A stretch of 42,038 nt of DNA from Anaerolineae bacterium (GTDB lineage: Bacteria; Chloroflexota; Anaerolineae; UBA4142): contig DAOTYB010000194.1 of the NCBI GenBank assembly GCA_034435315.1, positions 1-42,038 of the forward strand, written 5' to 3'. Every line of letters begins with the position of its first letter. Positions within the stretch are counted from its first letter, which is position 1. The translations under genes were made by a program, and so were the position numbers. The notes under the pieces were generated by a model, which searched no databases, had not been told where the DNA came from, and saw only the letters and a program-made list of their open reading frames with translations. Below are positions 7,935 to 40,861 of the stretch, one piece after another.

Positions 7935-9233
<1,299 letters not shown>

Positions 9234-9650: not shown

Positions 9651-11318
9651 ATGAGAATTGATCCTGTCGAAAAAAGTACGCTGGCACAATCTGTGGCAGA
9701 ACGCCTTTTGCGTTTGATTGCTGATGGGACTTGTAAGCCCGGCGAAAAAATGCCGTCCGAACGCGAGTTGATGGAACGCCTTCAGGTAGCGCGTTCCACC
9801 GTGCGTGAAGCACTGCAAGCGCTTGCGGCGTCTCACGTCGTCGAGATTCGTCCCGGCGTCGGTACGTTTGTGCGCGAAAATGCGCGCGATCTGATTCCCG
9901 TTGCACTCGAAAGTTTGCGTAACCCGCGCGCAGTTGCAGCATCACGGAGTACATCGGGCGATGGCTCGGAACGCGTACAGGGCGCGGGGGTGAGTCCTTT
10001 GCCGCCTCCACCAGACAAACCGTTGCACATTCCGAATCTCAAAAAAGATCGGCTGGGGACGTTCGAGTTTATTTCGTGGTGGGAACGCAGCAAAGTTCAA
10101 GCCGCGCGTGTGATGGTGGTAGGCGCGGGCGCACTCGGTAACGAGGTGTTAAAAAATCTTGCTTTGATGGGCGTGGGCAACCTGTTCATCGTGGACTTTG
10201 ATACCATCGAAGCCGCCAATCTGAGTCGCTCGGTATTGTTCCGCGCCGAAGACAATGGCAAGAAAAAAGCCGAGGTTGCCGCGCGCCGCGTCAAAGAACT
10301 GAATCCCGATGTGCATGTTCAATATTTTCATGGCGATGTGAATGTTGCACTGGGGCTGGGCATCTTTCGTCGAATGGATGTGATTATCGGATGTCTCGAT
10401 AATCGCGAAGCGCGCCTGTCTATCAATCGCTTTGCGTATCGGTTGAACAAACCGTGGGTGGATGGTGCAATTCAAGAACTCTTTGGCTTGATGCGCGTGT
10501 TCGTCCCCGGGGAAGGAGCGTGCTACGAATGCACACTCACTGAACAAGCGCGCCGCGAAATGTCGTTGCGATACTCGTGCCCCCTGCTGGCGCGGCAAAA
10601 TATCTTGCTGGGCAAAGTGCCGACCACGCCAACCATCTCGGCGATTATTGCGGGACTGCAATCGCAAGAGGCGTTGAAACTCATTCACGGTATGCCGGTG
10701 CAGGCAGGCTATGTGACGCACGTCAACGGTTTGATCAACGAGTTTCACACCACTGCCTACACGCCCGATGAAAATTGTGAGAGTCATTGGATTTACGGAG
10801 ACATTACCGAGTTGCCGAACATCAAAGCCGCGACGACAACAGCAGCGGAACTCTTGCGTATCGCGCGCGAACAACTGGGTCCCGACGCGCTGATTGAACT
10901 CGATCAGGAAATCGTGACCCATCTGGAATGTCATCGTTGCGAAACGCGTACCGCGGTGTACAAACCCATCTCGCAGGTAAGTTACAACGAGGGATTGTGT
11001 CCCGGCTGTGGCGAGTTGCGCGAGGTGCAGATGGCGCACGTCATCACCGGCGATGAGCCGTTTCTGCACCGGACCCTTTTGGCGCTGGGGATTCCGCCGC
11101 TCCACATCGTGCGTGTGCGTAACGAGCACGAGTATCGCTTTTTGGAATTGACCGGCGATCTAGCCGAAACGTTGCACTGGTCGCACTTTGAGGGCGGCGC
11201 GCGTTCAGCGCATGCCGCGCGAGTGCGCTTGCATCCACGTCCGCGCATCAAACTGGGTGAGGTGGTTCAGGTGAACGCGCCGGTCGAACCCAAGCGTCCA
11301 CGAATCGTCGTGCATTAA
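9651..11318 (+). CDS. GntR-family winged-HTH fused to an E1-like (ThiF/MoeB/UBA-type) adenylating enzyme
   Basis: N-terminus LAQSVAERLLRLIADGTCKPGEKMPSERELMERLQVARSTVREALQALAASHVVEIRPGVGTFV is a GntR wHTH. A P/S-rich linker follows, then the Rossmann motif VMVVGAGALGNEVLKNLALMGVGNLFIVDFDTIEAANLSRS, plus CYEC, CHRC and CPGC zinc-type pairs. Start moved from 9564 to ATG 9651. Confidence 0.85.
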   Translation: MRIDPVEKSTLAQSVAERLLRLIADGTCKPGEKMPSERELMERLQVARSTVREALQALAASHVVEIRPGVGTFVRENARDLIPVALESLRNPRAVAASRSTSGDGSERVQGAGVSPLPPPPDKPLHIPNLKKDRLGTFEFISWWERSKVQAARVMVVGAGALGNEVLKNLALMGVGNLFIVDFDTIEAANLSRSVLFRAEDNGKKKAEVAARRVKELNPDVHVQYFHGDVNVALGLGIFRRMDVIIGCLDNREARLSINRFAYRLNKPWVDGAIQELFGLMRVFVPGEGACYECTLTEQARREMSLRYSCPLLARQNILLGKVPTTPTISAIIAGLQSQEALKLIHGMPVQAGYVTHVNGLINEFHTTAYTPDENCESHWIYGDITELPNIKAATTTAAELLRIAREQLGPDALIELDQEIVTHLECHRCETRTAVYKPISQVSYNEGLCPGCGELREVQMAHVITGDEPFLHRTLLALGIPPLHIVRVRNEHEYRFLELTGDLAETLHWSHFEGGARSAHAARVRLHPRPRIKLGEVVQVNAPVEPKRPRIVVH

Positions 11319-11345: not shown

Positions 11346-12197
11346 ATGACGAGTGAATTTTCCAACCGCTGGCAGTTCCGTATCGGTTTTCTGTTGAGCG
11401 CGTTTTCGGGATTTGCCTGGGGGCTTGTACTGGGCTGGGCGCTGGTACGCCTGAACGCCTATCTCTCGGCGTGGCTCACGCTGGGTGTCACGTTGCCGCT
11501 GTTGTTCTGGGGGAGTCTGCTCGCCGGGCTGGGGTTCAACGTGATGTTGCCGCGCTGGCACAAACTGGTGCGCTGGCTGGTCGCCATTCCCATCCTCAGC
11601 GCGGGAAGTTTGTGGGGTATCCTGTGGGCGCTGATTGCCGATGGGATGGACCCTGTCAACCTGATTCGCTCGACGGGCTGGACGCTCTGGCAGTTGGAAG
11701 GGGTAGTGATGCTCGTGGGCTTGCTGGGTGGCATCTATCCGCGCTGGACCCTTCCCTTCTTGCGCCTGCTGGGACATCTGGCGCGTGGAGCGCTGGCTGT
11801 GCCGCTGCACCTGCTCCAGCGTCTGGGCGATGGCGTGTTGTGGCTGCCCCGCCAAATGCTGCGCGCCCTCGCACACGCGCGGGATAACGTGCGAGCCTTG
11901 GTGCCGATGCTTCCTGCGCTGCCATCGTGGAGTGGTCCCGCGTCAACATCGTCTCCCGCGCGCCCACGGACGCGTCGAGTCAAGCCAGCCCAGCCCAGAC
12001 CGGTGCACAATCGCAACAATGATTCGAACGGCGCGCGCATTGTCGCGCACATCGAGGATCGCTGTCCGTATTGCCTGGATGTGATCAAACCAAACGACCC
12101 GCGCGGTGTACGCGTGTGTGAGGTGTGTCACACACCGCATCACGCCGATTGCTGGGCAATCGCGGGCAAATGTCAGATGCCCCATTTGAATCTCTAG
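11346..12197 (+). CDS. Polytopic (about 4 TM) membrane protein with a C-terminal RING-like binuclear zinc finger (Prok-RING-like; candidate E3)
   Basis: Four hydrophobic helices in aa 10-130 and a P/S/R-rich linker. C-terminal pattern is C240-x2-C243-x14-C258-x2-C261-x3-H265-x3-C269-W-x5-C276-x3-H280 (CPYC...CEVCHTPHHADCWAIAGKCQMPH). Confidence 0.75.
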   Translation: MTSEFSNRWQFRIGFLLSAFSGFAWGLVLGWALVRLNAYLSAWLTLGVTLPLLFWGSLLAGLGFNVMLPRWHKLVRWLVAIPILSAGSLWGILWALIADGMDPVNLIRSTGWTLWQLEGVVMLVGLLGGIYPRWTLPFLRLLGHLARGALAVPLHLLQRLGDGVLWLPRQMLRALAHARDNVRALVPMLPALPSWSGPASTSSPARPRTRRVKPAQPRPVHNRNNDSNGARIVAHIEDRCPYCLDVIKPNDPRGVRVCEVCHTPHHADCWAIAGKCQMPHLNL

Positions 12198-12211: not shown

Positions 12212-13069
12212 ATGGCGGACTTGAGTGTAACGCTAGTGTTGCCAACCGGTGGCGCGCGCACGGCGGAGGTGCCGGACGACGTGCCGGTGCGCGAATTGTT
12301 ACCCGAACTCGTTTCCGTACTCGAATTGCCGACCACGGGACCCGACGGCCGCCCAATGGGCTATCGGCTGGATAGCAAAGCCCTGGGGCGAGAACTGCGT
12401 GAGAATGAAACGCTGGCAGCCGCCGGTGTGCCGGCGAACGATCGGCTGATGATTACAGCGGACGTTACGGCGGGCGCGCCGACCGCGCTGGTGAATGCCA
12501 GTCCGCGCTTTCGCCGCCTCAAAGCCGATTACGAAAAAATGCTGGAACTCAAAGCGCATAGCGACATTATTGACTTTGAGGTGGTGGATGTCAAACCCGG
12601 TTTTCCACCCGAAAAGTACATCGTGACGTTCAAATGCAAAAGTATCATCGGCATTGATGCGGCGGGTAATCCCAAATTCGGCGACAAACATCAAGTAGCA
12701 ATTTACTTGCATAACGAATACCCCCATCGCTGGCCCGGTTTGAAATGGCTCACGCCCATCTGGCATCCTAACATCAAAGGGTCGAACGGCAGTGTGTGCA
12801 TTGATGCGGCGTGGTGGACGGCGGCACGCTCACTCGATCGCCTGGTGATTATGCTGGGCGAAATGGCACAGTGGAAAAATTTTCATGATGATCCGACCAA
12901 GCCGCCGTTCCCCTGGGACCTCGAAGCCGCCAAGTGGAGTATGAACTATCGCAAGAAACATCCCGACTTTTTTCCAGTGGACAAGCGTGAACTCTTGCGC
13001 CCCGAACGGGTCAAACTCAAAACCGCGCCGACCACAGCCAAATCCAAACCCAAAATCAAGTTGAAATGA
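12212..13069 (+). CDS. Ubiquitin-like domain fused to a canonical UBC-fold E2 (HPN motif + catalytic Cys)
   Basis: GGAGG SD 4 nt upstream of ATG 12212. Residues 1-88 are 81 percent identical to the free Ubl and end in the same TADVTAG. The E2 core is YPHRWPGLKWLTPIWHPNIKGSNGSVCID (Cys196 codon at 12797-12799) plus an N-terminal RFRRLKADYEKMLEL helix. Confidence 0.88.
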   Translation: MADLSVTLVLPTGGARTAEVPDDVPVRELLPELVSVLELPTTGPDGRPMGYRLDSKALGRELRENETLAAAGVPANDRLMITADVTAGAPTALVNASPRFRRLKADYEKMLELKAHSDIIDFEVVDVKPGFPPEKYIVTFKCKSIIGIDAAGNPKFGDKHQVAIYLHNEYPHRWPGLKWLTPIWHPNIKGSNGSVCIDAAWWTAARSLDRLVIMLGEMAQWKNFHDDPTKPPFPWDLEAAKWSMNYRKKHPDFFPVDKRELLRPERVKLKTAPTTAKSKPKIKLK

Positions 13070-13115: not shown

Positions 13116-13382
13116 ATGGCAGACGTGCCTGTAACGCTGGTTCTTCCGGCCGGTGGCTCGCGTACCGCCGAAGTACCCAACGATGTACCCATCAAGGACT
13201 TGTTGCCCGAACTCACTTCATCCTTGCAACTCCCCACCACGGGACCCGATGGCCGTCCGATGAGTTATCGGATTGACAGCAAGGCATTGGGGCGTGAACT
13301 GCGCGAGGATGAAACGCTCGAATCCGCCGGCGTGCCCGCAAACGATCGGCTGATGCTGACAGCGGATGTGACCGCCGGCTAG
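13116..13382 (+). CDS. Free ubiquitin-like (beta-grasp type) protein, 88 aa, ending in Gly
   Basis: GGAGG SD 6 nt upstream. Sequence MADVPVTLVLPAGGSRTAEVPNDVPIKDLLPELTSSLQLPTTGPDGRPMSYRIDSKALGRELREDETLESAGVPANDRLMLTADVTAG then stop. Paralog of the N-terminal domain of the E2 fusion. Confidence 0.85.
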   Translation: MADVPVTLVLPAGGSRTAEVPNDVPIKDLLPELTSSLQLPTTGPDGRPMSYRIDSKALGRELREDETLESAGVPANDRLMLTADVTAG

Positions 13383-13447: not shown

Positions 13448-14566
13448 ATGTCATCGGCTGGGGTAGCCGCCACACCTTTTCACGCGCTGGCGATCGTCGC
13501 ATCACACAACGCCGATGCCGCGCCGATGCTGTACGAACTACAGAGTGAATCCACGACCATCGGCTCGGCAGAGGATAACGCGATCGTTCTGGTGGATGCC
13601 AGCATTGCGCCGCATCACTGCACCGTGCGTCGTCAAGGCGAGTCCGTGTATCTTCTGGTGGATGTGGGCGAACGTCTGCGCGCGCGCGCGGATACGTGGG
13701 ACACCGCACTTCCCGGCGACACCTATTGGTGTCCCCGTCACGGCAAGGTGGAACAACTGGATGCGCGCCGGTGGTGTGCCCAGTGCAAACGTCGGCGCGG
13801 TTCGTTGTGGTTGATGCGTCCACTCCACCCGGGCGATACGTTCGAGATTGGCGCGGCGTTTCGGGCGACCTATGTGGTGCACGAGCGCGAGGGAGAAGCG
13901 CACGATGCGTCTTCTCCGTTATCGCACCCGTTAGCCCCTGCCCCAGCGCGCTCCATCTCACTCATACCAGCCGAAACGTCTTTGCCGGTGCGTCCCCCGC
14001 CGCGCGACGACTCGAATGTATGGTGCTGGCAACCTGAAGGCGTACCCTTTCCCATCTACTTGCACCAGCGCGTCAATCTCCACGTCACGCAGCATGCGCG
14101 CCAGAATATGGATCGCGAAGTTGGGGGTGTTTTACTCGGCGAGGTGGGGCTGGATGAGCAGGGGCAAATGTACGTCTATGTGACGCACGCTATCAAAGCC
14201 GAGTTCACCACCGAAGCGCGCGGACACCTCACCTTTTCTCATCGCACCTGGTTGCAGATTCATTCGATTCACCAGACGTTGTATCCCGACAGACTGATTG
14301 TCGGATGGTATCACACGCATCCGGGGTGGACGATTTTTCTCTCGCCGTGGGATTTGTTCATCCATCGAAATTTTTTCAAACAGCCCTGGCAGATTGCGCT
14401 TGTGATTGATCCGACGCTGGATCGCGCCGGCTTTTTCGTGTGGAAGGACAATCAAATCGCCAGTCCGCATCAGCCGATTGCTCCCTTTCGTCTGGCAGAA
14501 CTCGACTACTGGATGGAACTATTCAAACCGCGCGTGCGCGTCAAACTGACCGATACGGCGCGCTGA
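13448..14566 (+). CDS. FHA-like domain (with Cys/His insert) fused to a JAMM/MPN+ metalloprotease (candidate deconjugating/processing enzyme 1)
   Basis: FHA-like STTIGSAEDNAIVLVDASIAPHHCTV...VYLLVDVG ... GDTFEIG with insert WCPRHGKVEQLDARRWCAQCKRRRG. JAMM motifs are REVGGVLLGEV and GWYHTHPGWTIFLSPWD (HxHx7Sx2D). Confidence 0.85.
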   Translation: MSSAGVAATPFHALAIVASHNADAAPMLYELQSESTTIGSAEDNAIVLVDASIAPHHCTVRRQGESVYLLVDVGERLRARADTWDTALPGDTYWCPRHGKVEQLDARRWCAQCKRRRGSLWLMRPLHPGDTFEIGAAFRATYVVHEREGEAHDASSPLSHPLAPAPARSISLIPAETSLPVRPPPRDDSNVWCWQPEGVPFPIYLHQRVNLHVTQHARQNMDREVGGVLLGEVGLDEQGQMYVYVTHAIKAEFTTEARGHLTFSHRTWLQIHSIHQTLYPDRLIVGWYHTHPGWTIFLSPWDLFIHRNFFKQPWQIALVIDPTLDRAGFFVWKDNQIASPHQPIAPFRLAELDYWMELFKPRVRVKLTDTAR

Positions 14567-14580
14567 TAGAAGGAGGTAAA

Positions 14581-15231
14581 GTGTTGCGGGTCAAACTAGG
14601 AGGCACTGTACCCAGCCCCATCATCGAACGACCGATGCCACTGGCTCAAGCGTTGCAGTGGGTCTCGCCGTACGAGGCGGAGGTGGCAGCGCAGGTGCGC
14701 ATCTTTTTCACGCAATCCGCTTATCGCCGTTGTGCGGAACATACGCAAAGCGATTTGGACCACGAAGTGGGAGGCGCGCTCGTGGGCGAGGTATGTTACG
14801 ACGCGCTCTATGCGCAGACGTACATCGTGATTCAAGACATCCTCCCCGCTCTCTTTGCGCGCGCGGGCGAAACGCATCTGACCTTTACACAGGACACGCT
14901 GGTTGATTTCAATAACCAACTGGAGGCGCGTTTTCCGGACAAACGGATTGTGGGATGGTATCACACGCATCCGCGTCTGGGAGTGTTCTTATCGGGATAC
15001 GATACTTTTTTGCATCGGCATTTTTTTCCTGACCCGAATCAAGTAGCACTCGTCATTGATCCGGCGGCACAGCAGGCGGGCTTTTTTTGCTGGCAACGTG
15101 ACGCCTCGCTCGATCCGCGGCGCTATGTCGGTTTCTATGAGGTGAGCGATCTGGACGAGTACAGCATCGTCGAGTGGGAGAATCTCACACCAGCGGTCTC
15201 GGTGCAGACGCCAGAAAGTGAGGCACAATGA
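14581..15231 (+). CDS. Stand-alone JAMM/MPN+ metalloprotease (candidate deconjugating/processing enzyme 2)
   Basis: AGGAGG at 14571-14576, then GTG 14581 (ATG 14635 is an alternative). Motifs HEVGGALVGEV and GWYHTHPRLGVFLSGYD. Clear paralog of the C-terminal half of the previous gene. Confidence 0.85.
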   Translation: MLRVKLGGTVPSPIIERPMPLAQALQWVSPYEAEVAAQVRIFFTQSAYRRCAEHTQSDLDHEVGGALVGEVCYDALYAQTYIVIQDILPALFARAGETHLTFTQDTLVDFNNQLEARFPDKRIVGWYHTHPRLGVFLSGYDTFLHRHFFPDPNQVALVIDPAAQQAGFFCWQRDASLDPRRYVGFYEVSDLDEYSIVEWENLTPAVSVQTPESEAQ

Positions 15232-16088
15232 GTTTACGAATGCGGGCGTACTATTACGCGATTCTGGGCGCGATCGGCGCGCTCATTGGTGGACGTATCG
15301 GCGATACGATTGGTTTTGTGCACGGGATGAATGTGTATGTGAGTGATGTCATCCTCGGCGCGATTCTGGGGTTGAGTATCGGTGTGTTGATTGGTGCCAG
15401 CGAGGGTTTGCTGGAGCGCTCGTGGTATCGCACGCTGCGCGCCGCTCTGGTGGCGGGCAGCATTGGCATGGTGGCAGGCGCGGTGGGCTTGCCCATCGGC
15501 GAGTTGGTGTTTCAACTCTCCGGCGGCGAACTCGTTGGACGTGCGCTGGGGTGGGCGCTGTTCGGTTTGCTGATTGGCTGGTCGGAAGGCTACATCACCG
15601 GAGCACAGGCGTGGAAAGGCGCGCTGGGCGGCGTGGTGGGGGGAACCATCGGCGGGGTCATTTTGTTTCTCCTGCAATCTCTCTTCGGTGCCTCGGAGTT
15701 GGGCAAGATTCTGGGCTTGAGCGTGTTGGGCGCGGCGGTGGGTGCGTTCATTGCCTTGATTGTGGTGATCCTCTCGCGCGCGTGGCTCGAAGTCAAAACG
15801 GGTAAACTCAAAGGCAATGAATTCATCCTCGACAAATTCTTGCCCACACACGGACCCGCCGCGATTATCGGCAGTAACGATTTCAAAGCGGACATTGCAC
15901 TCCCCGACCCGGCGATTGCACCCCAACATGCGCGCTTGAAAGGCGCGGGCACACACTTTGTGATTGAGGATATGAGTGTGGGCAAAGGAACGTTCGTGAA
16001 TGGTCGCAAAGTGGAAACAGCGCGCTTGACGAACAACGCGGTCATTCGTCTGGGCAACACCGAGTTGGTGTACCACGAGCGACGTTAA
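15228..16088 (+). CDS. Gly-rich polytopic membrane protein with a C-terminal FHA domain
   Basis: ATGA start/stop overlap with the upstream JAMM gene. N-terminal glycine-zipper-like helices. C-terminus AIIGSNDFKADIALPDPAIAPQHARLKGAGTHFVIEDMSVGKGTFVNGRKVETARLTNNAVIRLGNTELVY. Confidence 0.85.
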   Translation: MSLRMRAYYYAILGAIGALIGGRIGDTIGFVHGMNVYVSDVILGAILGLSIGVLIGASEGLLERSWYRTLRAALVAGSIGMVAGAVGLPIGELVFQLSGGELVGRALGWALFGLLIGWSEGYITGAQAWKGALGGVVGGTIGGVILFLLQSLFGASELGKILGLSVLGAAVGAFIALIVVILSRAWLEVKTGKLKGNEFILDKFLPTHGPAAIIGSNDFKADIALPDPAIAPQHARLKGAGTHFVIEDMSVGKGTFVNGRKVETARLTNNAVIRLGNTELVYHERR

Positions 16089-16199: not shown

Positions 16200-17414
16200 A
16201 TGAGAAAGTTTATCGTCTTCTGGATGTGGGTGTGCGTGTTCGGCTGGCTTGCTGCGACGGGGGTGCAGGCGCAAGCGCAGGTGAATATCCGCGTGACGCA
16301 AGTGGATACCTCGCGCTTTCCACAGGTGGACGTGTACATCTCGGTCACGGATGCCAGCGGCAATCCCGTGCGTCACATTTCCCCGAGCGCCTTTCGCGTG
16401 ACGGAGAATGGCGCAGAAATGTCGCTGACCAGCGTCACGCGCGCGGGTGAGCAAGGCGCGGTCAACACTATCTTGATTATTGATCGCAGCGGCAGTATGG
16501 CGGCGGGCGACAAGATGGTCGCGGCGAAACAAGCGGCGAGTACCTTTGTCAATTTGATGCGCCCCGGCGACAAGACCGCGTTGATCCAGTTCGATACCGA
16601 AATCGAGACACTGCAAACGTTCACGGATGACAAAGCCAGGTTGTTGGCGGCGATTCAAAAAATCTTTCCGCGCGGCAATACCGCGCTGTACGATGCGCTG
16701 GATCACGCCGCGCGCTATTTCGAGACGGTGCAGGGACGCAAAGCCATCATCGTGCTGACCGACGGTATGGATACAGCAAGCAAACTGGGGCGTGAAGCGA
16801 TTGTGCAACGTGTGAGTCACGGTGGCTTTTCGGTTTACACCGTGGGGCTGGGTGCCCGCAATACGGCGTATGGCAGTCAAGAAGGCGTTGACGAGGAGAT
16901 TTTGCGTGAACTGGCAAACGTGACCTATGGCAATTACTACTACAGTCCCGATGGCAGCCAGTTGAGTGAACTGTATCAACAGTTGTCGTTCCTGCTCCAG
17001 AACGAATACAAACTCACCTACCTTTCACCCAATCCTTTGCGCGATGGCGTCAAGCGCAACATTGTGGTCACGGCGATGGGCGCCGGCAGTACACGCACCG
17101 AGTTCAATCCCGGTGGCGTCATTCCCGAAGTGGCAACGCAGGCGACCTCGTGGATCCTCTTTTTCGTCGTGCTGGCGGTGTTGCTCGCGCTGTTACTCGT
17201 TCCTGCGGCAATACACCTGCTCCGCGCGCGCGGGGTGGCGCTGCCGACTGTGCCCACGTCTGCGTCAGCGCCGCAGAAACCGAGTCGTATCAAATTGACC
17301 GGTGAGGCTCCACCGGCAGGAACGGCGCAACCTAAATCGCGCATCAAGATCAAACAATCATCCAGCGACACCGCGCGCCCGATGCCGTGGGATGAAAATC
17401 CAGATGGACATTGA
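16200..17414 (+). CDS. Secreted vWA-domain protein with a C-terminal TM anchor and a Lys/Ser/Thr-rich cytoplasmic tail
   Basis: Signal peptide MRKFIVFWMWVCVFGWLAATGVQAQA, MIDAS motif IIDRSGSM with downstream T and D, TM helix WILFFVVLAVLLALLLVPAAIHLL, and a tail with two PxSRIK motifs. Confidence 0.85.
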   Translation: MRKFIVFWMWVCVFGWLAATGVQAQAQVNIRVTQVDTSRFPQVDVYISVTDASGNPVRHISPSAFRVTENGAEMSLTSVTRAGEQGAVNTILIIDRSGSMAAGDKMVAAKQAASTFVNLMRPGDKTALIQFDTEIETLQTFTDDKARLLAAIQKIFPRGNTALYDALDHAARYFETVQGRKAIIVLTDGMDTASKLGREAIVQRVSHGGFSVYTVGLGARNTAYGSQEGVDEEILRELANVTYGNYYYSPDGSQLSELYQQLSFLLQNEYKLTYLSPNPLRDGVKRNIVVTAMGAGSTRTEFNPGGVIPEVATQATSWILFFVVLAVLLALLLVPAAIHLLRARGVALPTVPTSASAPQKPSRIKLTGEAPPAGTAQPKSRIKIKQSSSDTARPMPWDENPDGH

Positions 17415-17479: not shown

Positions 17480-18511
17480 ATGTCGAACGTATTTGAACAG
17501 ATGCCCGATGTAGGCAAAAAGAAACCCACGAGTGCCGCCAAGACGCCCAGTCGCACACCGCTGGTGGTGGGAGCACTCGCCGTATTTTTAATGCTGTTGT
17601 TGTGTGCGTTGCTGGCTGGTGGCGGCTATTGGCTCTGGTCGTCTCAGCAGGGCAGCCCCGTCGCTCTATCTCCAACGCCCGGCGTCAAGTTCGCACAGCC
17701 GGTTATGCCTGTCGGAGGCCGCGTCCGCATCGCCTTTAGTGTCGAGCGCGGGGGGCGCCCTGAAGACAAGTTCGTGTGGATAATGAACGCCGATGGGAGT
17801 GATGCCAGGCAGGTGCTCAAGAATGCGTCTTCGCCCGCTCTTTCGCCGGACGGTTCGTTGATTGCCTACTATCACTGGAACGAGGGCATTCACGTGGCGA
17901 ATGTCAATGGGACCAACGCGCGCAAGATCGTGGGCGAAGCGCATGCCAAGTATCTCGCCTGGTCGAATGATGGCAAATGGATTGCCTTTTCCTCGCAACC
18001 GATTCTGGATCGCACGGTGCTGGTCAACATTGATGCGGTGCGCGTGGATGGTAGCGGGCGGCGTACCATCGTTTATGGCGGTACGCAACCGTCGTGGTCG
18101 CCGGACGACAAGTACATTGCGTTTGCTACTTGTCGCGGTTCCGATTGTGGCATCTACAAAGCCAGTTCGGCAGGCGGAGATGCCGGTACTCCCATCACTA
18201 AAGATTTGGGAACGAACCCCGCTTGGTCACCCACAGGCAATCAGATTCTATATCAGGCTGATGTGGACGGGGTCAAGCACTTGTTTGTTGTGAACGTGGA
18301 TGGTAGTGGCAAACGTCAACTCACGTGGGGTACTTCGCCGCGCGTGGGCGCGCAATGGTCGCCGGACGGAAGTGCCATCTACTATCGCGCGCTCGAAGAT
18401 GGAGTGTGGAGCATCTGGCGAATGAATGCAGATGGCTCGAACCCTGTCCGCATCGCTACCGATGTACCACCTGTTGATTGGGCGTACGAACGCCTGGCGC
18501 TGAGTCGCTAA
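17480..18511 (+). CDS. N-terminally anchored TolB-like beta-propeller protein (PD40/WD40-like repeats)
   Basis: GGGAGG SD upstream of ATG 17480. Short basic cytoplasmic tail, TM helix, and repeated SPDG / WSPD / DGS blades (ALSPDGSLIAY, AWSNDGKWIAF, SWSPDDKYIAF, AWSPTGNQILY, QWSPDGSAIYY). Confidence 0.85.
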   Translation: MSNVFEQMPDVGKKKPTSAAKTPSRTPLVVGALAVFLMLLLCALLAGGGYWLWSSQQGSPVALSPTPGVKFAQPVMPVGGRVRIAFSVERGGRPEDKFVWIMNADGSDARQVLKNASSPALSPDGSLIAYYHWNEGIHVANVNGTNARKIVGEAHAKYLAWSNDGKWIAFSSQPILDRTVLVNIDAVRVDGSGRRTIVYGGTQPSWSPDDKYIAFATCRGSDCGIYKASSAGGDAGTPITKDLGTNPAWSPTGNQILYQADVDGVKHLFVVNVDGSGKRQLTWGTSPRVGAQWSPDGSAIYYRALEDGVWSIWRMNADGSNPVRIATDVPPVDWAYERLALSR

Positions 18512-18748: not shown

Positions 18749-21496
18749 CTACTGCTTCTGTCCCGTTGCCTTCATCAACTCTTCCAGCGTTTGTTGCAGC
18801 CCCTGCATCTCTTTGCCGTACGTTGCCCAATCGCCGGTCTTGAGCGCGTCTTGTGCGCGCGCATAGTGATCGTTCGCTTTCTTGACGAGGGCGTTGACGC
18901 TGGTCGGCGTGTCGGTGCTGGGCGTGGTTGGCGCTGCGACGACGCTGGCGCCCGCGCCGAAAATGCGCGCGAGCGACTCGCCGAGGGTTGGCTCCATCAC
19001 GACGTTGTTCGTCGTGGCGACCACGACGCGTTTCAACTGCGGTATCTGCGATTGTTCCGCAAGCAGATACATCGGTTGAATGTAGAGAAGCGATTTTTCG
19101 ATGGGGATGACGAGCAAATTCCCCCACAGCACGCGACTGCCGCGCTGACTGAGGAGCGTCAGTTCTGCCGAAATCTTGGGGTCCTGATTCAGGCGCGCGT
19201 GAATTTGTTCAGGACCGTACACCAACTTGTCCTTGGGAAAACGATACACCAGGCGTTTGCCGTAATCCGCGCCATCGCTCTTGGCCGACATCCATGCGAC
19301 CATATTTTGACGCTTGGCTGGGGTGAACGGCAACATCAGCATAAATTCTTCCTTCGGATCGCTGGGCAAACGCATAATCACATAGTACGGCTCCATTGGA
19401 TTGGGACGACCGTCCGCCGATTCGTTTGGAAATGCCCACAGGTCTTCTTTGTTGTAAAAGACCAGCGGGTCTTGCATATGATATGTGCGATACATCGCGG
19501 CTTGAATCGTGAACAAGCCTTCGGGATAGCGCAAATGATCGCGCAGCGTGGCAGGCATTTGCTCCATCGGCTTGAAGAGCGCGGGAAAGATCGCGCGATA
19601 CGCGCGCAGAATCGGCTCGTCCGGTTCCGCGATGTAAAACGTCGTCGTGCCATCGTACGCGTCAATCGCAATCTTGACCGAGTTGCGAATGTAGTTGAGG
19701 TTGCGTTGATACGGTTCGCTGTAGGGATATTGACCTGTGAACGTGTAGGCGTCTTGTAGCCATACGATCTTGCCATCGGCGATGACGGCGTATGGATCCT
19801 TGTCCAGCATCAAAAAGGGCGCGATGCGCCGCACGCGCGTCTGAATGTGCCGATTGAACAGCACGCGGCTTTCGTTGGTGAGCGCATCGGTGAGCAAGAT
19901 ATTCATATCGCCAAAGCGCAGCGCGAACATCAAGCGATCCCAGTACGAGCCAATGGGCACACCGCCGGTGCCTTCGTACGTCGTGAACGCGTTCTCATCG
20001 CCTCTGGGATAATCGAATTCTTTTTCGCGCGTCTTGACAAAGACGTAATCGGTCGTCTCTTCACCAAAGTAGATCTGGGGGCGCGTCACGGGAATGACGC
20101 CAGTCGGTGGAATATCTTTGACGAGCAAATTCGGCAGACCATCGGCAGTGAATTCGTTGACGGGACTGACTGCCACGCCATAGCCATGCGTATAGACCAG
20201 ATGCAAGTTGACCCACGTCTGCGCTTTTTCAGTCAACTTCCGCGTGGCTAGTTCGCGCACGCTTACCATCACCTGACGATAGCGGTCACCGATGCGGTAG
20301 CGATCCACATCCACATCACTGAATTCGTAGTACGTGCGGATAGATTGAATTTGATTGTACGTTTGCAACAGCGGACGATAATCCTGCAAACGAATGTTGT
20401 TGATGGTCTCGGCGTTGCGCTGAATATCGGTGGCGGTGAGCACATCCTCGGCAGGATAGGGCGCGTCCTGAATCGTATCGAGCGCGTACGCGCGACGCGT
20501 CAACGTGATGTTGTGTTTGATGTACGGCTCTTCCTTGACAAACTCGTTCGGCTTGACCTCGAAATTCTGCACGACGCCCGGATAAAATTCACCCAGCACG
20601 AGCGCGGCAAGAATCCAGAGCGCGACCGCAATACCAATCGCTTTGAGCGCGCGCACAAAAACGTTGACGAGCAGCAACACCGCCAGCGCGAGCGCGAGAA
20701 TCGTGAGGATGTTGTAGGCGGGAATTTGCGCGTTCACGTCGGTGTAACTGGCGCCAAAGACCACACCGCGCGGTGAAAAGACGAGTTCGTACTTGTCGAG
20801 TTGGTAACTCCACGCGTTGAGCAACAAAAACAGAAAACCGAGAAACGACAGATGCGCCTTGACCGCGTTCGTCCACTGAATTCGCCCCAGTCCCATCAAG
20901 TACGTCGCGCCCGTGGCGAACGCGGCAAGCACAATCGCGCTGCCAATCCAACTGACCAGAAAGCGATAGATGGGCAGGGTGAAAACGTAGAACGCCACAT
21001 CCTGATTAAAAATCGGATCGGTGACGCCGAACGGCGCGGCGTTGGCAAAGCGCAAAAACGCCAGCCAGTTGTTTTGCGCGAGCATCCCCACGATGAACGC
21101 GAGCAACAGTCCGGCGGAAACGAGCAGGAACGTGATGGATTTGCCAGCGAACATCGCCAGTTGCGTCCAGCGCGACGATTCGTCCGCAAAGCGTGGCGTG
21201 AGTCGTCGCGCGATGGCGATGTTGATGATGTAGAACACAAAGAACACGAGCGCCGCGCCGAAAAAGATCGCGACGCGCGCGTTCAGTTCGGTCACAAAGA
21301 CCGAGGTGTAACCGACTTCTTCGAACCAGCGATAATCGGTATAGAGACGCGGTAGAATCGAAAACAAAATCCACAGCAAGAAAAATGCTGTGACCAACAA
21401 AATCGGTCGCCGCAAGTTCGGTGATGGACGACGCAACACATCGTCCCAATCCACCTCAGGCGCGGCGCGCCGTCCGCGATAAAAAGCCATTGTCAC
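18749..21496 (-). CDS. UPF0182-family large polytopic membrane protein
   Basis: 915 aa with an N-terminal multi-TM region containing YTDYRWFEEVGYTSVF, a large soluble domain, and a C-terminal ALKTGDWATYGKEMQGLQQTLEEL typical of the family. Confidence 0.85.
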   Translation of the reverse strand: MTMAFYRGRRAAPEVDWDDVLRRPSPNLRRPILLVTAFFLLWILFSILPRLYTDYRWFEEVGYTSVFVTELNARVAIFFGAALVFFVFYIINIAIARRLTPRFADESSRWTQLAMFAGKSITFLLVSAGLLLAFIVGMLAQNNWLAFLRFANAAPFGVTDPIFNQDVAFYVFTLPIYRFLVSWIGSAIVLAAFATGATYLMGLGRIQWTNAVKAHLSFLGFLFLLLNAWSYQLDKYELVFSPRGVVFGASYTDVNAQIPAYNILTILALALAVLLLVNVFVRALKAIGIAVALWILAALVLGEFYPGVVQNFEVKPNEFVKEEPYIKHNITLTRRAYALDTIQDAPYPAEDVLTATDIQRNAETINNIRLQDYRPLLQTYNQIQSIRTYYEFSDVDVDRYRIGDRYRQVMVSVRELATRKLTEKAQTWVNLHLVYTHGYGVAVSPVNEFTADGLPNLLVKDIPPTGVIPVTRPQIYFGEETTDYVFVKTREKEFDYPRGDENAFTTYEGTGGVPIGSYWDRLMFALRFGDMNILLTDALTNESRVLFNRHIQTRVRRIAPFLMLDKDPYAVIADGKIVWLQDAYTFTGQYPYSEPYQRNLNYIRNSVKIAIDAYDGTTTFYIAEPDEPILRAYRAIFPALFKPMEQMPATLRDHLRYPEGLFTIQAAMYRTYHMQDPLVFYNKEDLWAFPNESADGRPNPMEPYYVIMRLPSDPKEEFMLMLPFTPAKRQNMVAWMSAKSDGADYGKRLVYRFPKDKLVYGPEQIHARLNQDPKISAELTLLSQRGSRVLWGNLLVIPIEKSLLYIQPMYLLAEQSQIPQLKRVVVATTNNVVMEPTLGESLARIFGAGASVVAAPTTPSTDTPTSVNALVKKANDHYARAQDALKTGDWATYGKEMQGLQQTLEELMKATGQKQ

Positions 21497-28925: not shown

Positions 28926-29690
28926 ATGAAACGCTGGTTACCTTGGGTCAATCTCGCGACGGTTATCGTCGCACTGACGGTGAATGTTCTGGCAAACGCG
29001 CTGCCGTTGAACGGGCAAAGCACGGGCGCCATTTCGGACAAGTTCAAGGTGTTTTTCGTCCCTGCGGGTTATGTCTTTGCAATCTGGGGTGTCATCTACA
29101 TCGGTTGGATTGCGTTTGTCGTGTACCAGTTGTTGCCCGCACAGCGCGACAACGCGCGCCTCGCGCGCATCGGCTGGCTGTTTGTGTTCAGCAACCTCGC
29201 GAACGCGGCGTGGTTGTTCACCTGGCATTACGAACTCTTGCCCCTCTCGGTCGTGGTGATGCTCGCGCTGCTCCTCTCACTCATTGGAATCTACGTCCGC
29301 TTGAACATCGGACGCGCGCGCGTGACGACAATCGAAAAATGGTGCGTGGATGTTCCGTTCAGCATCTACCTCGGCTGGATCAGCGTGGCGACGATTGCGA
29401 ACATCACCGATTTGCTGTACGCGTTAAAGTGGGACGGCCTGGGCATCGCGCCTGAAATGTGGGCGGCGGTGATGCTCGTCGTCGCATCCGCGCTCGCGCT
29501 GGTGATGACGTGGACGCGCCGCAACCTTGCGTATCTGGTGGTGCTGGTCTGGTCGTTCATCGGCATCGCGGTCAAACAATCGGCGGTGGCAGTGGTGGCG
29601 AACACGGCGTGGGTGACGACCGCGTTCGTCGTCCTGTTGATTGCGTCGAGCGTCTGGTTGCGCGCGCGCAAATCGGTTGCTGCGAGTTGA
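28926..29690 (+). CDS. Trp-rich polytopic membrane protein, TspO/MBR-related
   Basis: About 254 aa with multiple TM helices and W-rich motifs (AIWGVIYIGWIAF, NAAWLFTWHY, SIYLGWISVATIAN). Family assignment by eye. Start moved from 28839 to ATG 28926. Confidence 0.6.
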   Translation: MKRWLPWVNLATVIVALTVNVLANALPLNGQSTGAISDKFKVFFVPAGYVFAIWGVIYIGWIAFVVYQLLPAQRDNARLARIGWLFVFSNLANAAWLFTWHYELLPLSVVVMLALLLSLIGIYVRLNIGRARVTTIEKWCVDVPFSIYLGWISVATIANITDLLYALKWDGLGIAPEMWAAVMLVVASALALVMTWTRRNLAYLVVLVWSFIGIAVKQSAVAVVANTAWVTTAFVVLLIASSVWLRARKSVAAS

Positions 29691-29698
29691 GTATCGGA

Positions 29699-30982
29699 AT
29701 GGGCACAACCTTCGGGCTGACGATCAAAGTGGTTGCCGAACGCACGGGTGTATCGGTGCATACCTTGCGCGCGTGGGAGCGGCGCTATGGCGTGCCTGCG
29801 CCCAAGCGCGACGCGGACAATCGCTATCGTCTGTACGATGAGCAGGACATTGCCGATGTGTTGTGGCTGAGGCAACAAGTGGAAGCAGGCATTCCGCCCG
29901 CGCAGGCGAGCGCGCTGTTGCGCCAGCGTCGTCAGTCTGCGCGCGCGATGGTTGAAGCGATGCAACCGCTCGCGACGACACAAGCCGCGCTGTTCGATGC
30001 GTTCGCGCGTTCGGACGAGACGGCCGCGCGGCGAATCTTGGACGAAGCGTTCGCGCTCTTTGCGCCTGAACAAGTGGCGCAACACATCATCGTCCCCACG
30101 CTGCGCGAGATTGGCGCGCGCTGGATGCGCGGCGAGATGACCGTGTGGCAAGAGCATCTGGCGAGCAACGTCATTCAACAAAAATTGTTTGCGATTTTGC
30201 AAGCGCAACCCGCGCTGCCGCTCGCGGTGCCAACGCTGGTTGCCGCGTGCGCGCCCAACGAAGAGCACGCGCTCGGTCTGCTCATCTTTTCGCTGATCGC
30301 GCAGCGTCAAGGGTGGCGCGTGATTTTTCTGGGACAGGGTACGCCGCTTGCCGACATCAACGCGGCGGCGCGCCTCCAGCCGAAATTCATCGTGGTCTCT
30401 GTGACGACGGTGATTGGTCTGGCGGGGCTAATCCCTTGGCTTGATGCGGCGCAGCGCCCTGCGGTTCCACTTGTCTTTGCGGGGCGCATCGTGGACGCGC
30501 TGCCGAATTTGCGCGCGCATTTGCCTGGCGAGTATCTGGGCGCGGAGATGATTGCGCCCGCGCAACTCTTGACACTGAAACCGCGCGCCGAGTATTGGTC
30601 GCCCAGCAAGCGCGCGTTGAACGCGGCAAACGCGCTGTACGCGCGCCGACTCGAAATCGCGGGCGAGACGGTCGCGCGATTCTTCGCGACGCTCGCGCCG
30701 AATCATCATCGCACGTGGAACGTGAACGACATCAATTTTGCGACGTTGTTTCTGATTGATGCGGTCACCTGCGCGCTTGCGTTCGGCGTGCCCGAATTGA
30801 TGGACACGGAACGCGCGTGGTTGGACGAGATGATGCCATCGCGCGCAGTGCCTGCCGAATTGGTTACGCAACATCTCACAACGTTTGCGCGCGTGCTGGG
30901 ACAATCGTTTTCCAAAGAACACAATCGGTTGTATCAATCGCTGATTGAACGAATGAAAAATGCAAGGCGGTCGTACGAATGA
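29699..30982 (+). CDS. MerR-HTH + cobalamin-binding-domain regulator, CarH/LitR-type light sensor candidate, with an extra about 170-aa C-terminal domain
   Basis: MerR HTH LTIKVVAERTGVSVHTLRAWERRYGVPAPKR. W-x9-EH motif (WMRGEMTVWQEH). ExHxxG lower-ligand motif (NEEHALG). Start moved from 29459 to ATG 29699. Confidence 0.8.
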   Translation: MGTTFGLTIKVVAERTGVSVHTLRAWERRYGVPAPKRDADNRYRLYDEQDIADVLWLRQQVEAGIPPAQASALLRQRRQSARAMVEAMQPLATTQAALFDAFARSDETAARRILDEAFALFAPEQVAQHIIVPTLREIGARWMRGEMTVWQEHLASNVIQQKLFAILQAQPALPLAVPTLVAACAPNEEHALGLLIFSLIAQRQGWRVIFLGQGTPLADINAAARLQPKFIVVSVTTVIGLAGLIPWLDAAQRPAVPLVFAGRIVDALPNLRAHLPGEYLGAEMIAPAQLLTLKPRAEYWSPSKRALNAANALYARRLEIAGETVARFFATLAPNHHRTWNVNDINFATLFLIDAVTCALAFGVPELMDTERAWLDEMMPSRAVPAELVTQHLTTFARVLGQSFSKEHNRLYQSLIERMKNARRSYE

Positions 30983-38999: not shown

Positions 39000-39473
39000 A
39001 TGTCGAAAATCGCGCTCAACACTCTCGCGCCGGATTTCGCGCTGGACGATTTTCAGGGACGCCAGGTGCGCCTTGCCGATTTTCGTGGCAAGAAGAATGT
39101 CGTGCTGATTTTCAATCGTGGCTTTGCGTGACCATTTTGCCAGAGGCATATGGCGCAGTTGCGCCAGGATGTTGACGCGTTTGTAAAACGCGATGCGGAA
39201 ATCATCGTCGTCGGTCCAGAAAACGCGCGCGCGTTTGCCGAGTACTGGCGGAAACACAATCTGCCGTTCGTCGGCTTGCCCGACCCGACCGCCAGCGTGC
39301 TCAAGTTGTACGGGCAAGAGGTGAACCTGTTCAAACTGGGACGAATGCCCGCACAAGTGATCATAGACCGCGCGGGCGTGGCGCGTTTTGTTCACTATGG
39401 ACATTCGATGAGGGACATTCCGGCAAATGCTGAATTGCTCGCGATTCTCGATACATTGAATCAGGAAGCGTGA
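39000..39473 (+). CDS. AhpC/TSA (Prx-like, thioredoxin-fold) protein with in-frame UGA at the redox-active position: probable selenoprotein (UxxC)
   Basis: ATG 39000 with AGGAGG SD. Reads MSKIALNTLAPDFALDDFQGRQVRLADFRGKKNVVLIFNRGFA-TGA(39129-39131)-PFCQRHMAQL..., continuing in the same frame as ORF 39150-39473. The TGA replaces the first Cys of the CPFC-type motif. A hairpin lies 18-42 nt downstream. Confidence 0.7.
39147..39171 (+). promoter_or_regulatory. Candidate bacterial SECIS hairpin
   Basis: cat-a-tggcgc-AGTT-gcgcca-gg-atg gives a 9-bp interrupted stem. The apical loop contains GU, 28-31 nt after the U of UGA. Confidence 0.5.
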
Positions 39474-40861
39474 TGCGTCGAGTGATCTGGTGGCTGCGGC
39501 GCGATCTGCGCCTGACCGATAACATCACGTTGCATTACGCGTTGCGCGATGCGTCCGCGGTGATTCCCGTTTTCATTCTCGATGCGCGCCTCTTGCGCAG
39601 CGACACACTCGCGCCCGCGCGCAAGCAATTTCTGTTCGATTCGCTCGCCGATCTCGATGCACGATTACGCGCGCGCGGCGGACGATTGATTGTGCGGCGC
39701 GGCGATCCCGCGCGCGAACTGGCGCGCCTAGCGCGCGAGACGCAAAGCGACGCGGTGTACTTGCATCGCGATTACACGCCGTACGCTCGCGCGCGTGATG
39801 CGCGCGTGGTCAACGCGCTGGGCGCGCTCGGTGTGCGCATCGAAGCGTTCGACGACAATTATCTTGCCGCGCCTGAACAGGTGTTGAAGGACGACGGCAC
39901 GCCATACACCGTGTTCACGCGCTTTCGCCAGCGCTTTGAAGAGCGCGTGATTGTGCCGAATCGTTACGCGGCGCGCGGCGATTTGAACACCCCGCGCGAC
40001 ATTGCGTCGCTAGATGTGCCACGCGTCGAGCGCGAGCATCGTTTTGCGCGCGGTGGCGAGACCGAGGGGCTGAAACTTGCGCGCGCGTTCTTGCGTCGCG
40101 CGGATGGTTTGCGCGCGTATCGCGACACGCGCGATTTTCCCGCGCGCGATGCCACGTCGCATCTCTCGCCGCATTTGCATTTTGGCACTGTGTCGGTGCG
40201 CGAACTGGTGCGCGCCGCGCGCGCGGTGGACGCTGGTGCGAATGGCAAAGCGTGGTTGGACGAACTGGTGTGGCGCGAGTTTTACGCGTATGTACTGTGG
40301 CATTTTCCGCACGCGGCGCGCGGCGCGTTTCGGCGCGCGTACGAAACAATCGCGTGGGAGAATGATGCGGAAAAATTCGCGGCGTGGTGTGCGGGTCGCA
40401 CCGGCTATCCGATGGTGGACGCGGCGATGCGGCAACTGAACGCGACGGGGTGGATGCACAATCGCGCGCGGATGATCGTCGCGTCGTTTCTCACCAAAGA
40501 TTTGCTGATTGATTGGCGCTGGGGCGAGAAATATTTTTTGCAAAACTTGGTTGATGGCGATATGGCATCGAACAATGGCGGCTGGCAATGGGCGGCAGGA
40601 ACAGGAACGGACGCGCAGCCGTTCTTTCGCATTTTCAATCCCGTCTTGCAAGGCGCGCGGTTCGATCCCGATGGCGCGTACGTCAAGCGGTGGGTGCCCG
40701 AACTGGCGCGCGTGCCGCGCGAGTATGTACACGCGCCCGCTACAATGCCGCGCGAGATCGCGCGGCGCGCGGGTGTGGAAGTCGGCAGGGATTATCCCGC
40801 GCCGATTGTGGAGCATGCGGTACAACGTGAGCGCGCGGTGGCGCTGTATCGGCAAAAGTAA
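39470..40861 (+). CDS. phr: Deoxyribodipyrimidine photolyase (class I CPD photolyase/cryptochrome family)
   Basis: VIWWLRRDLRLTDN, TGYPMVDAAMRQLNATGWMHNRARMIVASFLTKDLLIDWRWGEKYF, DGDMASNNGGWQWAAGTGTDAQPFFRIFNP. Start GTG 39470 or ATG 39473, overlapping the upstream stop. Confidence 0.95.
   Translation: MMRRVIWWLRRDLRLTDNITLHYALRDASAVIPVFILDARLLRSDTLAPARKQFLFDSLADLDARLRARGGRLIVRRGDPARELARLARETQSDAVYLHRDYTPYARARDARVVNALGALGVRIEAFDDNYLAAPEQVLKDDGTPYTVFTRFRQRFEERVIVPNRYAARGDLNTPRDIASLDVPRVEREHRFARGGETEGLKLARAFLRRADGLRAYRDTRDFPARDATSHLSPHLHFGTVSVRELVRAARAVDAGANGKAWLDELVWREFYAYVLWHFPHAARGAFRRAYETIAWENDAEKFAAWCAGRTGYPMVDAAMRQLNATGWMHNRARMIVASFLTKDLLIDWRWGEKYFLQNLVDGDMASNNGGWQWAAGTGTDAQPFFRIFNPVLQGARFDPDGAYVKRWVPELARVPREYVHAPATMPREIARRAGVEVGRDYPAPIVEHAVQRERAVALYRQK

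Follow-up and report, generated by a model that had tools for sequence, protein, structure and literature searches.

A membrane protein with a prokaryotic RING-type finger, a candidate E3 adaptor, in a ubiquitin-like conjugation cassette of Chloroflexota

A Prok-RING_1 finger encoded between E1 and E2 genes

The stretch of DNA analyzed here (the window, 42,038 nucleotides of contig DAOTYB010000194.1 from an Anaerolineae bacterium of the Chloroflexota) carries a cassette of genes of a ubiquitin-like protein (Ubl) pathway. An open reading frame (ORF) of this cassette, flanked by the genes for the E1 and the E2, encodes a 283-residue membrane protein that ends in a zinc finger of the Prok-RING_1 family, and that we refer to as TM-RING for its transmembrane (TM) helices and its finger. 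This position is the one given in a preliminary description made from the letters of the DNA: an E1 gene of the GntR-ThiF type lies upstream, at a distance of 27 nt, and an E2 gene of the YukD-UQ_con type lies downstream, at a distance of 14 nt. The JGI and Logan gene callers give the same ends for the TM-RING product on 3 other contigs, and each of these copies carries a precomputed match to Pfam family PF14446. A database search returned 470 homologs at E ≤ 1e-3, about 60 of them full-length with 33–59% identity.

Searched with hidden Markov models of prokaryotic RING families, the finger scores above the curated gathering threshold of PF14446, ‘Prokaryotic RING finger family 1’ (Prok-RING_1). 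In particular, the full protein reaches 29.9 bits and residues 224–283 alone reach 34.4 bits, the threshold being 29.1 bits, and the same model matches 36 of the 36 homolog fingers tested (best E 1.2e-11). The Cys-Trp dipeptide of the finger had been described as typical of prokaryotic RING families, and this holds: W270 is invariant and the PHHADCW core recurs in family members. The longer core C-x2-C...C-x2-C-x-x-P-H-H-A-D-C-W is invariant in the Chloroflexota clade and is also found in members from Planctomycetota, Solirubrobacterales, and Verrucomicrobia.

Residues 240–280 read CPYC-x14-CEVC-HTPHH-ADCW-x5-C-x3-H, exactly as in the preliminary description, preceded by EDR and followed by LNL to the end of the protein. 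Written by position, the pattern is C240-x2-C243-x14-C258-x2-C261-x4-H266-x2-C269-x6-C276-x3-H280, and all six Cys residues of TM-RING sit within it. Where eight or more Cys and His ligands with cross-brace spacing had been claimed, eight are confirmed in order and spacing; the motif is present in 120 of the 120 homologs listed, with all eight ligands invariant. A generalized form of the pattern occurs only once across the six reading frames of the window. (Note that H262, the His of ‘CEVCH’, was considered as a ninth ligand and rejected because it is not conserved, homologs having G, H, R, or other residues at this position.) Given the canonical cross-brace order, we propose that C240, C243, H266, and C269 would form zinc site 1 and that C258, C261, C276, and H280 would form site 2.

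Conservation was assessed in two alignments, one of 27 full-length proteins and one of 36 fingers. Invariant in both are C240, P241, Y242, C243, D251, R253, G254, C258, C261, H265, H266, A267, C269, W270, C276, Q277, and H280, so that H265 is an extra invariant residue beyond the eight ligands; P252, D268, and P279 are invariant among the 27 full-length proteins and reach at least 90% conservation among the 36 fingers. Pairwise identity is 81% over the finger, 44% over TM1–4, and 29% over both the long helix that follows TM4 (residues 132–188) and the linker that leads to the finger (residues 189–232). The protein as a whole is only 29–55% identical to that of the window where the E1 is 62–90% and the E2 domain 63–93% identical, the divergence being confined to the anchor and the linker.

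An AlphaFold2 (AF2) model of residues 224–283, with a predicted local distance difference test (pLDDT) score of 84 overall and about 90 over the finger, has a beta-beta-alpha core (strands 255–257 and 264–266, helix 267–273). The best 50 matches of this model in the Protein Data Bank (PDB), found with Foldseek, are nearly all binuclear cross-brace treble-clef fingers. Among them are RINGs (Ring1b, alone and in its complex with UbcH5c, EL5, Pirh2, APIP6, Arkadia, and Rad18), PHD fingers (TAF3, AL3, MLL3, MLL1, and Pygo2), and the RH domain of Rubicon. The predicted structure supports a RING/PHD-type fold for the finger rather than a plain zinc ribbon; the preliminary description had raised the simple zinc ribbon as a possible outcome of modeling, and the model retrieves hardly any zinc ribbons in Foldseek. 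(A search of the finger sequence against PDB chains returned only noise, with Mn-SOD, RNF24, and a FYVE domain at E ≥ 0.65, and was uninformative.)

These comparisons bear on the possibility that the C terminus consists of two sequential mononuclear zinc ribbons or knuckles with a role outside Ubl transfer, for example in binding nucleic acid. Matches to DZR, RecR_ZnF, and zinc-ribbon models do occur in 15–19 of the 36 homolog fingers, but these scores fall far under threshold whereas that of Prok-RING_1 lies above its own. Moreover, zinc-ribbon folds are nearly absent among the best 50 PDB matches, and the genomic context is exclusively that of a Ubl pathway. Two such ribbons are, in our view, highly improbable. 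The matches of homolog fingers to the PHD, C1, zinc-ribbon, and zf-RING_2 models of Pfam are all sub-threshold; RINGv is not among the best 25 of the 32 families matched at E ≤ 1, and the finger of the window has no RINGv match.

Predicted membrane topology of TM-RING and the genes around it

The four hydrophobic helices that had been read from the translation are borne out by three lines of evidence. Kyte-Doolittle maxima lie near residues 24, 54, 88, and 121; the AF2 model has helices at residues 3–38, 42–67, 73–99, and 112–130 (pLDDT ≥ 95); and TM1–4 combine a high Eisenberg mean hydrophobicity (<H> of 0.66–0.78) with a low hydrophobic moment (muH of at most 0.16) and 0–1 charged residues per 18. 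An addition to the earlier account is the fifth long helix after TM4 (residues 132–188), which has an <H> of 0.16–0.40, a muH of 0.36–0.52, and 3–4 charges per 18 residues, and which differs strongly in length between orthologs. We read this modeled helix as peripheral and, by prediction, cytoplasmic, and not as membrane-spanning. The P/S/R-rich linker of the preliminary description is likewise there, since Pro, Ser, and Arg make up 48% of residues 189–232, and residues 201–232 are predicted to be disordered (pLDDT < 50 in AF2). The membrane domain of the full-length AF2 model has no significant match in the PDB (best E 0.6, Mce1/LucB, MlaE-like).

The number of Lys and Arg residues per region, averaged over 27 homologs, is 2.3 for the N terminus, 2.85 for loop 2, and 4.1 for the region after TM4, and it is 1.0 for loop 1 and 0.5 for loop 3, which is net acidic. 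In a model with both ends inside, the count of positive charges is thus 9.3 inside vs 1.4 outside. Four passes together with this charge distribution support the prediction that both ends of the protein, and hence the finger, are in the cytoplasm, which is where the finger had been placed before. The E1 and E2 translations have, on reading (no signal-peptide predictor was run), no N-terminal hydrophobic segment and so should be cytoplasmic too.

The finger would instead be extracellular if helix 132–188 were a fifth transmembrane pass, and a crude hydropathy scan does mark residues ~145–165 as hydrophobic in some orthologs. Against this stand the low <H>, high moment, and charges of the helix in the window, and its variation in length among orthologs, which would flip the topology if the helix crossed the membrane. 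In addition, the positive-inside count strongly favors a cytoplasmic C terminus, the partner E1 and E2 translations read as just described, and the reducing cytoplasm is a suitable place for a zinc site rich in Cys. We rejected this helix as a fifth TM segment on account of its moment, charges, and variable length, and regard an extracellular finger as scarcely credible.

Table 1 Features of the TM-RING gene, the surrounding cassette, and the R-[IV]-[KRH]-[LI] tail motif (positions in the window)
Feature	Position	Strand	Basis
TM-RING: membrane protein with C-terminal Prok-RING_1 finger, 283 aa	11346..12197	+	ORF, ATG start
Four transmembrane helices of TM-RING, residues ~13–34, 41–65, 77–99, 113–131	11382..11738	+	hydropathy, AF2
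Amphipathic juxtamembrane helix, residues 132–188	11739..11909	+	AF2 helix
Disordered Pro/Arg/Ser-rich linker, residues 189–232	11910..12041	+	composition, AF2
Binuclear finger (predicted), residues 240–280	12063..12185	+	invariant ligands, Pfam, AF2, Foldseek
E1: GntR-type winged helix fused to ThiF-type adenylating domain, 555 aa	9651..11318	+	Pfam GntR, ThiF
Ubl-E2 fusion: YukD-like beta-grasp and canonical UQ_con E2 with HPN...C, 285 aa	12212..13069	+	Pfam YukD, UQ_con
Stand-alone YukD-like Ubl, 88 aa, ends ...TAG	13116..13382	+	Pfam YukD
FHA-JAB peptidase, JAMM HTHP..S..D intact	13448..14566	+	Pfam FHA, JAB; translation
Second JAB peptidase (JAB2), 216 aa, JAMM intact	14581..15231	+	Pfam JAB
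Glycine-rich (glycine-zipper) polytopic membrane protein with C-terminal cytoplasmic FHA (TM-FHA)	15228..16088	+	Pfam FHA, Yop-YscD_cpl
Signal peptide, vWA, C-terminal TM, and basic cytoplasmic tail	16200..17414	+	Pfam VWA, sequence
N-terminally TM-anchored PD40/TolB-like beta-propeller	~17480..18511	+	Pfam PD40, NCBIfam TolB propeller
E1 C-terminus motif: ‘PRIKLGE’, terminal ‘PRIVVH’	11220-11250
E2 C-terminus motif: ‘ERVKLKT’, terminal ‘KIKLK’	13005-13066
FHA-JAB C-terminus motif: ‘VRVKLTD’	14535-14555
JAB2 N-terminus motif: ‘(M)LRVKLGG’	14584-14600
vWA cytoplasmic tail motif: ‘SRIKLTGE’, ‘SRIKIKQ’	17285-17350

The enzymes of the cassette resemble those of eukaryotes. Among solved structures, those nearest to the E1 are of eukaryotic UBA7, UBA1, and SAE2, with ThiF and MoeB ranking behind them. 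The E2 carries ‘WHPNIKGSNGSVCID’ and has eukaryotic UBE2K and UBE2D as its nearest solved relatives, and its stretch ‘IWHPNIKGSNGSVCID’ aligns with the active sites of eukaryotic E2s. Both JAB peptidases retain the H-x-H-x7-S-x2-D motif, and the eukaryote-type JAB model scores above Prok-JAB. The YukD-like Ubl is present in two copies, one fused to the E2 (12212–12475) and one free (13116–13382). The free copy terminates in TAG in 38 of 42 orthologs and in VAG in 2 more (Gly-ending in 40 of 42), so that its C-terminal Gly is exposed as soon as the protein is made. At the junction of the Ubl-E2 fusion the TAG is repeated and a variable linker follows, which suggests that a JAB cleaves the fusion.

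The GntR domain of the E1 (window 9651–9960) scores 75 bits against Pfam GntR, and a DNA-binding E1 suggests either autoregulation or a coupling of Ubl activation to transcription. The conserved tail of the vWA protein ends in MPWDE..DKH in close relatives. Among the larger ORFs of the window, which were the ones scanned, none matched a family of Ser/Thr kinases or phosphatases that could feed the FHA domains. Note that the mechanical ORF starts lie too far upstream for four genes: 9564 vs 9651 for the E1, 12125 vs 12212 for the Ubl-E2, 14440 vs 14581 for JAB2, and 17411 vs ~17480 for the PD40 protein. The starts at 9651, 12212, and 14581 were set by independent gene calls together with Shine-Dalgarno-like sequences.

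We surveyed 79 loci, with one genome per species, of which 50 are of the Chloroflexota type (L001–L050; mostly metagenome-assembled genomes of Anaerolineae, with one bin labeled Acidobacteriota) and the remainder (L051–L079) come from other clades. Where the contig reaches, the gene order in the 50 Chloroflexota-type loci is GntR-E1, TM-RING, (Ubl-)E2, Ubl, [FHA-JAB], JAB, TM-FHA, vWA. The FHA-JAB gene is missing in many of the more distant of these loci; a propeller gene follows the vWA gene in 9 of the 50, all of them closest relatives; and 42 of the 50 have the GntR-E1 fusion, most others being cut upstream of the E1 core. In five loci (L013, L016, L017, L021, and L049) there is no Ubl match upstream of the E2.

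Seven loci of the other clades (L053, L062, L064, L069, L073, L075, and L078) have more distant E1, E2, Ubl, or JAB genes near the finger gene. In these clades, which comprise Planctomycetota, Solirubrobacterales, Wallbacteria, and Verrucomicrobia, the fingers end in C-x4-C, not C-x3-H, stand at either the N or the C terminus, with or without TM helices, and are often encoded by 3–4 tandem paralogs (for example in L060, L064, and L067). Attachment of the finger to ~8–10 predicted helices is also seen in other clades.

The cassette is bordered by genes on the opposite (−) strand for an isocitrate/isopropylmalate dehydrogenase (7935–9233) and a UPF0182 membrane protein (18749–21496). None of the 79 loci, even at 90% E1 identity, has a counterpart of the isocitrate dehydrogenase, the UPF0182 protein, LytR, or ORF 6946. 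Because the flanks are not conserved, the cassette behaves as a self-contained module, and because they are not shared even with a locus whose E1 is 90% identical, this module changes its genomic context between close relatives. Farther downstream in the window are a MerR-HTH regulator with a B12-binding domain (CarH-like; 29459–30982) and a DNA photolyase (39470–40861), which look like a light-response neighborhood unrelated to TM-RING.

The E1, E2, FHA-JAB, and JAB2 proteins share at their termini a short motif, R-[IV]-[KRH]-[LI], which is also present in the cytoplasmic tail of the vWA protein. Strict matches number 9 in the 2,855 residues that make up the cassette, as compared with 0.79 ± 0.90 in 1,000 shuffles (maximum 5), and 0 in the 4,804 residues of other window proteins. 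The motif is kept in orthologs (L001–L050) even though the flanking sequence varies. In TM-RING itself, a looser version precedes the finger by 6–7 residues (ARIVAH here, IRLTG or VKLVG in homologs). We found no published description of this tail motif. Possible roles for it are those of a docking strand, a motif for interaction with the Ubl, or a site of modification, and it may constitute the docking code of an assembly.

A candidate E3 adaptor and the alternatives

The homology of the finger to Prok-RING_1, together with the E1/E2 context, supports the membrane-anchored E3 candidate put forward in the preliminary description. We think it probable that TM-RING serves as the E3 adaptor in a cassette for Ubl conjugation that is self-contained and eukaryote-like. 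The four helices would anchor the protein in the cytoplasmic membrane, and the amphipathic helix and a flexible, basic linker of ~40 residues would present the finger, a predicted 45-residue two-zinc cross-brace of the C4-H-C2-H type, at the inner face. The Ubl cycle that we infer from knowledge of these families would have four steps. First, the E1 would adenylate the 88-residue YukD-like Ubl at its Ala-Gly end and form a thioester with it; second, the Ubl would pass from the E1 to the catalytic Cys of the HPN-type E2; third, the finger would bind the charged E2 (E2~Ubl) and promote discharge onto lysines of membrane-proximal, probably membrane-associated, targets; and fourth, the two JAB peptidases would reverse the modification and probably also cleave the Ubl-E2 fusion after TAG to free its Ubl. 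What the analysis itself shows is the gene and the family of its domain, the invariance of the ligands, a predicted fold of RING/PHD type, a cytoplasmic orientation judged by charge bias, and a strict synteny with the E1, E2, Ubl, and JAB genes; that the finger binds two zinc ions and the E2 and stimulates ligation, that the fusion is processed, and which proteins are targeted are matters of inference.

Several observations weigh against an E3 role. A basic ‘linchpin’ after the last ligand is common, although not universal, in RINGs, and the finger has no such Arg or Lys, the protein ending in H280-L-N-L with N282 at least 90% conserved. Its last pair of ligands reads C-x3-H instead of C-x2-C. 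The invariant Trp follows ligand 6 immediately (C269-W270), and the E2-contacting Trp of eukaryotic RING-H2 fingers lies ~4 residues past that ligand. The Foldseek matches have E-values of 0.1–1 (probability 0.6–0.9), which is expected for a 45-residue domain, and PHD fingers score no worse against the model than RINGs, so that the fold search cannot separate the two. Finally, we found no biochemistry of any bacterial Prok-RING_1 member in the literature searched.

Some of these observations are also what would be expected if the finger were a PHD-like reader or anchor that binds a peptide, the Ubl, or its conjugates and tethers enzymes or products without stimulating transfer, the E2 modifying targets directly. 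The equal match of PHD fingers to the model and the missing linchpin fit such a role. So do the Pfam searches, in which 12 of 36 homolog fingers have sub-threshold PHD (PF00628) matches (best E 0.0016, with no match at E ≤ 1 for the finger of the window) vs 3 of 36 with weak zf-RING_2 matches. The R-[IV]-K-L motif shared by the E1, E2, and JABs also suggests assembly through docking peptides. However, the family is defined as RING, and membership of the finger lies above the curated threshold; the gene invariably lies between those for the E1 and E2; a finger from an archaeon, identical in its central spacing, works as an E3; and conservation of the finger (81% pairwise) resembles that of the E2 domain (63–93% to that of the window). 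We consider a reader or anchor without ligase function unlikely.

RING E3s commonly modify themselves, and TM-RING has one lysine in its linker (Lys213) and two in its finger (Lys248 and Lys275). Thus, the protein might be mainly a substrate or regulatory target that is Ubl-modified on these residues, with the finger serving as a structural zinc module. But lysines number just four in the whole protein, and conservation of the linker is poor. Moreover, a role as target leaves unexplained the invariant non-ligand surface of the finger, made up of P241, Y242, D251-P-R-G254, H265, W270, Q277, and P279. That TM-RING is chiefly a target therefore seems to us very unlikely.

The candidate E3 might also be part of something larger. 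One can imagine a ‘ubiquitylation signalosome’ embedded in the membrane, with TM-RING as its ligase, in which the vWA protein and the TolB-like propeller act as extracytoplasmic sensors that are coupled, through their TM segments and the TM-FHA protein, to Ubl tagging in the cytoplasm, the whole being held together by the R-[IV]-K-L docking motif. We offer this only tentatively and regard it as rather doubtful. If true, such a signalosome would be a bacterial counterpart of the ubiquitylation of membrane proteins by MARCH ligases or in endoplasmic-reticulum-associated degradation (ERAD), with an assembly code of its own.

Complete cascades of E1, E2, RING E3, and deubiquitinase were long seen as an invention of eukaryotes and, later, of archaea. 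Some surveys found no complete toolkit in bacteria (PMC4327156). The cassette described here offers a clean bacterial example, with a canonical HPN-type E2, an E1 nearest to UBA7 and UBA1 among solved structures, eukaryote-type JABs, and a membrane-anchored candidate RING, and it is conserved in no fewer than 50 species-level genomes of the Chloroflexota type. With its ~55 residues, the compact finger makes, together with the neighboring E2, E1, and Ubl, a tractable set with which to ask whether RING-mediated activation of E2s predated eukaryotes, and what bacterial cells tag at their membrane.

Comparison with known conjugation systems

The archaeal finger mentioned above is the small RING finger protein (srfp) of Caldiarchaeum subterraneum, which is required for E1/E2-dependent ubiquitylation in vitro (PMC5654768) and has the motif C-X2-C-X11-C-X2-C-X4-H-X2-C-X10-C-X2-C (PMC3082918). 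Compared by published motif and not by sequence, srfp and the window finger share the central spacing C-x2-C-x4-H-x2-C and a C4-H-C3-type order, and both are encoded in operons with a ubiquitin or Ubl, an E1, an E2, and an Rpn11/JAB peptidase. They differ in that srfp is small and is described with no mention of a TM segment (PMC3082918, PMC5654768), whereas TM-RING is membrane-anchored. The two loops of srfp are x11 and x10, as against x14 and x6 here, and its last ligand pair is C-x2-C; R69, which is functionally important in srfp, has no counterpart in the window finger. The modifiers differ as well: that of the archaeon is ubiquitin-like with a Gly-Gly end, and that of the cassette is YukD-like with an Ala-Gly end.

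With the eukaryotic MARCH/RING-CH, Hrd1, and Doa10 ligases TM-RING shares a polytopic anchor and a finger predicted to face the cytosol that would recruit an HPN-type E2, and the order of its ligands is C4HC3-like, as in RING-CH. Unlike RING-CH fingers, in which the central spacing is C-x-C-x7-H, the window finger has C-x2-C-x4-H and does not match RINGv, and its anchor is without a significant PDB match. The likeness to MARCH and Hrd1, and to RING ligases of the endoplasmic reticulum membrane in general, is a functional analogy only, on the predicted architecture, and not one of membership.

Kaur et al. (2020) described Ubl-E2 fusions, E1, JAB, and prokaryotic RING proteins inside ‘ternary’ conflict systems of the FtsH/MoxR/vWA type, and proposed that JABs cut related Ubl-E2 fusions (PMC7159879). 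The cassette resembles these systems in its Ubl-E2, its separate E1 and JAB, its RING-type E3 candidate, and its association with vWA and beta-propeller domains. Unlike them, it has no MoxR/FtsH AAA+ gene, EAD1 adaptor, or caspase-like effector; its vWA domain and its propeller each belong to a protein of their own that is anchored in the membrane and extracytoplasmic; and it adds FHA domains and the GntR-E1 fusion. The Bil and Bub systems are likewise bacterial E1/E2/Ubl/JAB operons, and in Type I Bub, too, there is a Ubl-E2 fusion. However, both as described are without a RING E3, the window E2 is a canonical UQ_con, and the cassette has no DUF6527 protease. PADLOC does not recognize the cassette as a known defense system: it had no match to the RING protein, the E2, or the Ubl, and weak E1-E2/BilD and JAB matches for the E1 and the JAB peptidases only. 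Likewise, the RING protein, the E2, the Ubl, and JAB2 were without a match among the curated NCBIfam models. Because no defense or curated model matched these four, we did not file the cassette as Bil, Bub, or CBASS(-Cap2), identities that we rejected on these results.

The comparison with Prok-RING_1 itself is one of membership. Bacterial members of that Pfam entry reportedly carry transmembrane helices, and Burroughs, Iyer, and Aravind are said to have also proposed, in their work of 2011, the conjugation of YukD-like Ubls. TM-RING shares with the family the HHADCW core and the linkage to E1, E2, JAB, and YukD-like Ubl genes. The Chloroflexota clade is set apart by a finger that ends in C-x3-H (CQ[VM]PH), where other recovered members have C-x4-C; by an invariant DPRG in loop 1 of the finger; and by the position of that finger, which is always at the extreme C terminus, behind 4 to ~10 TM helices. 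In papers that cite it, the study of Burroughs, Iyer, and Aravind (2011, Mol Biosyst 7:2261) is credited with prokaryotic RING E3s in operons with E1, E2, JAB, and Ubl genes. Because the kind had already been predicted then, TM-RING extends and documents the family and does not newly reveal it: it is a well-documented new member, of a distinct Chloroflexota clade, of a family known from comparative genomics.

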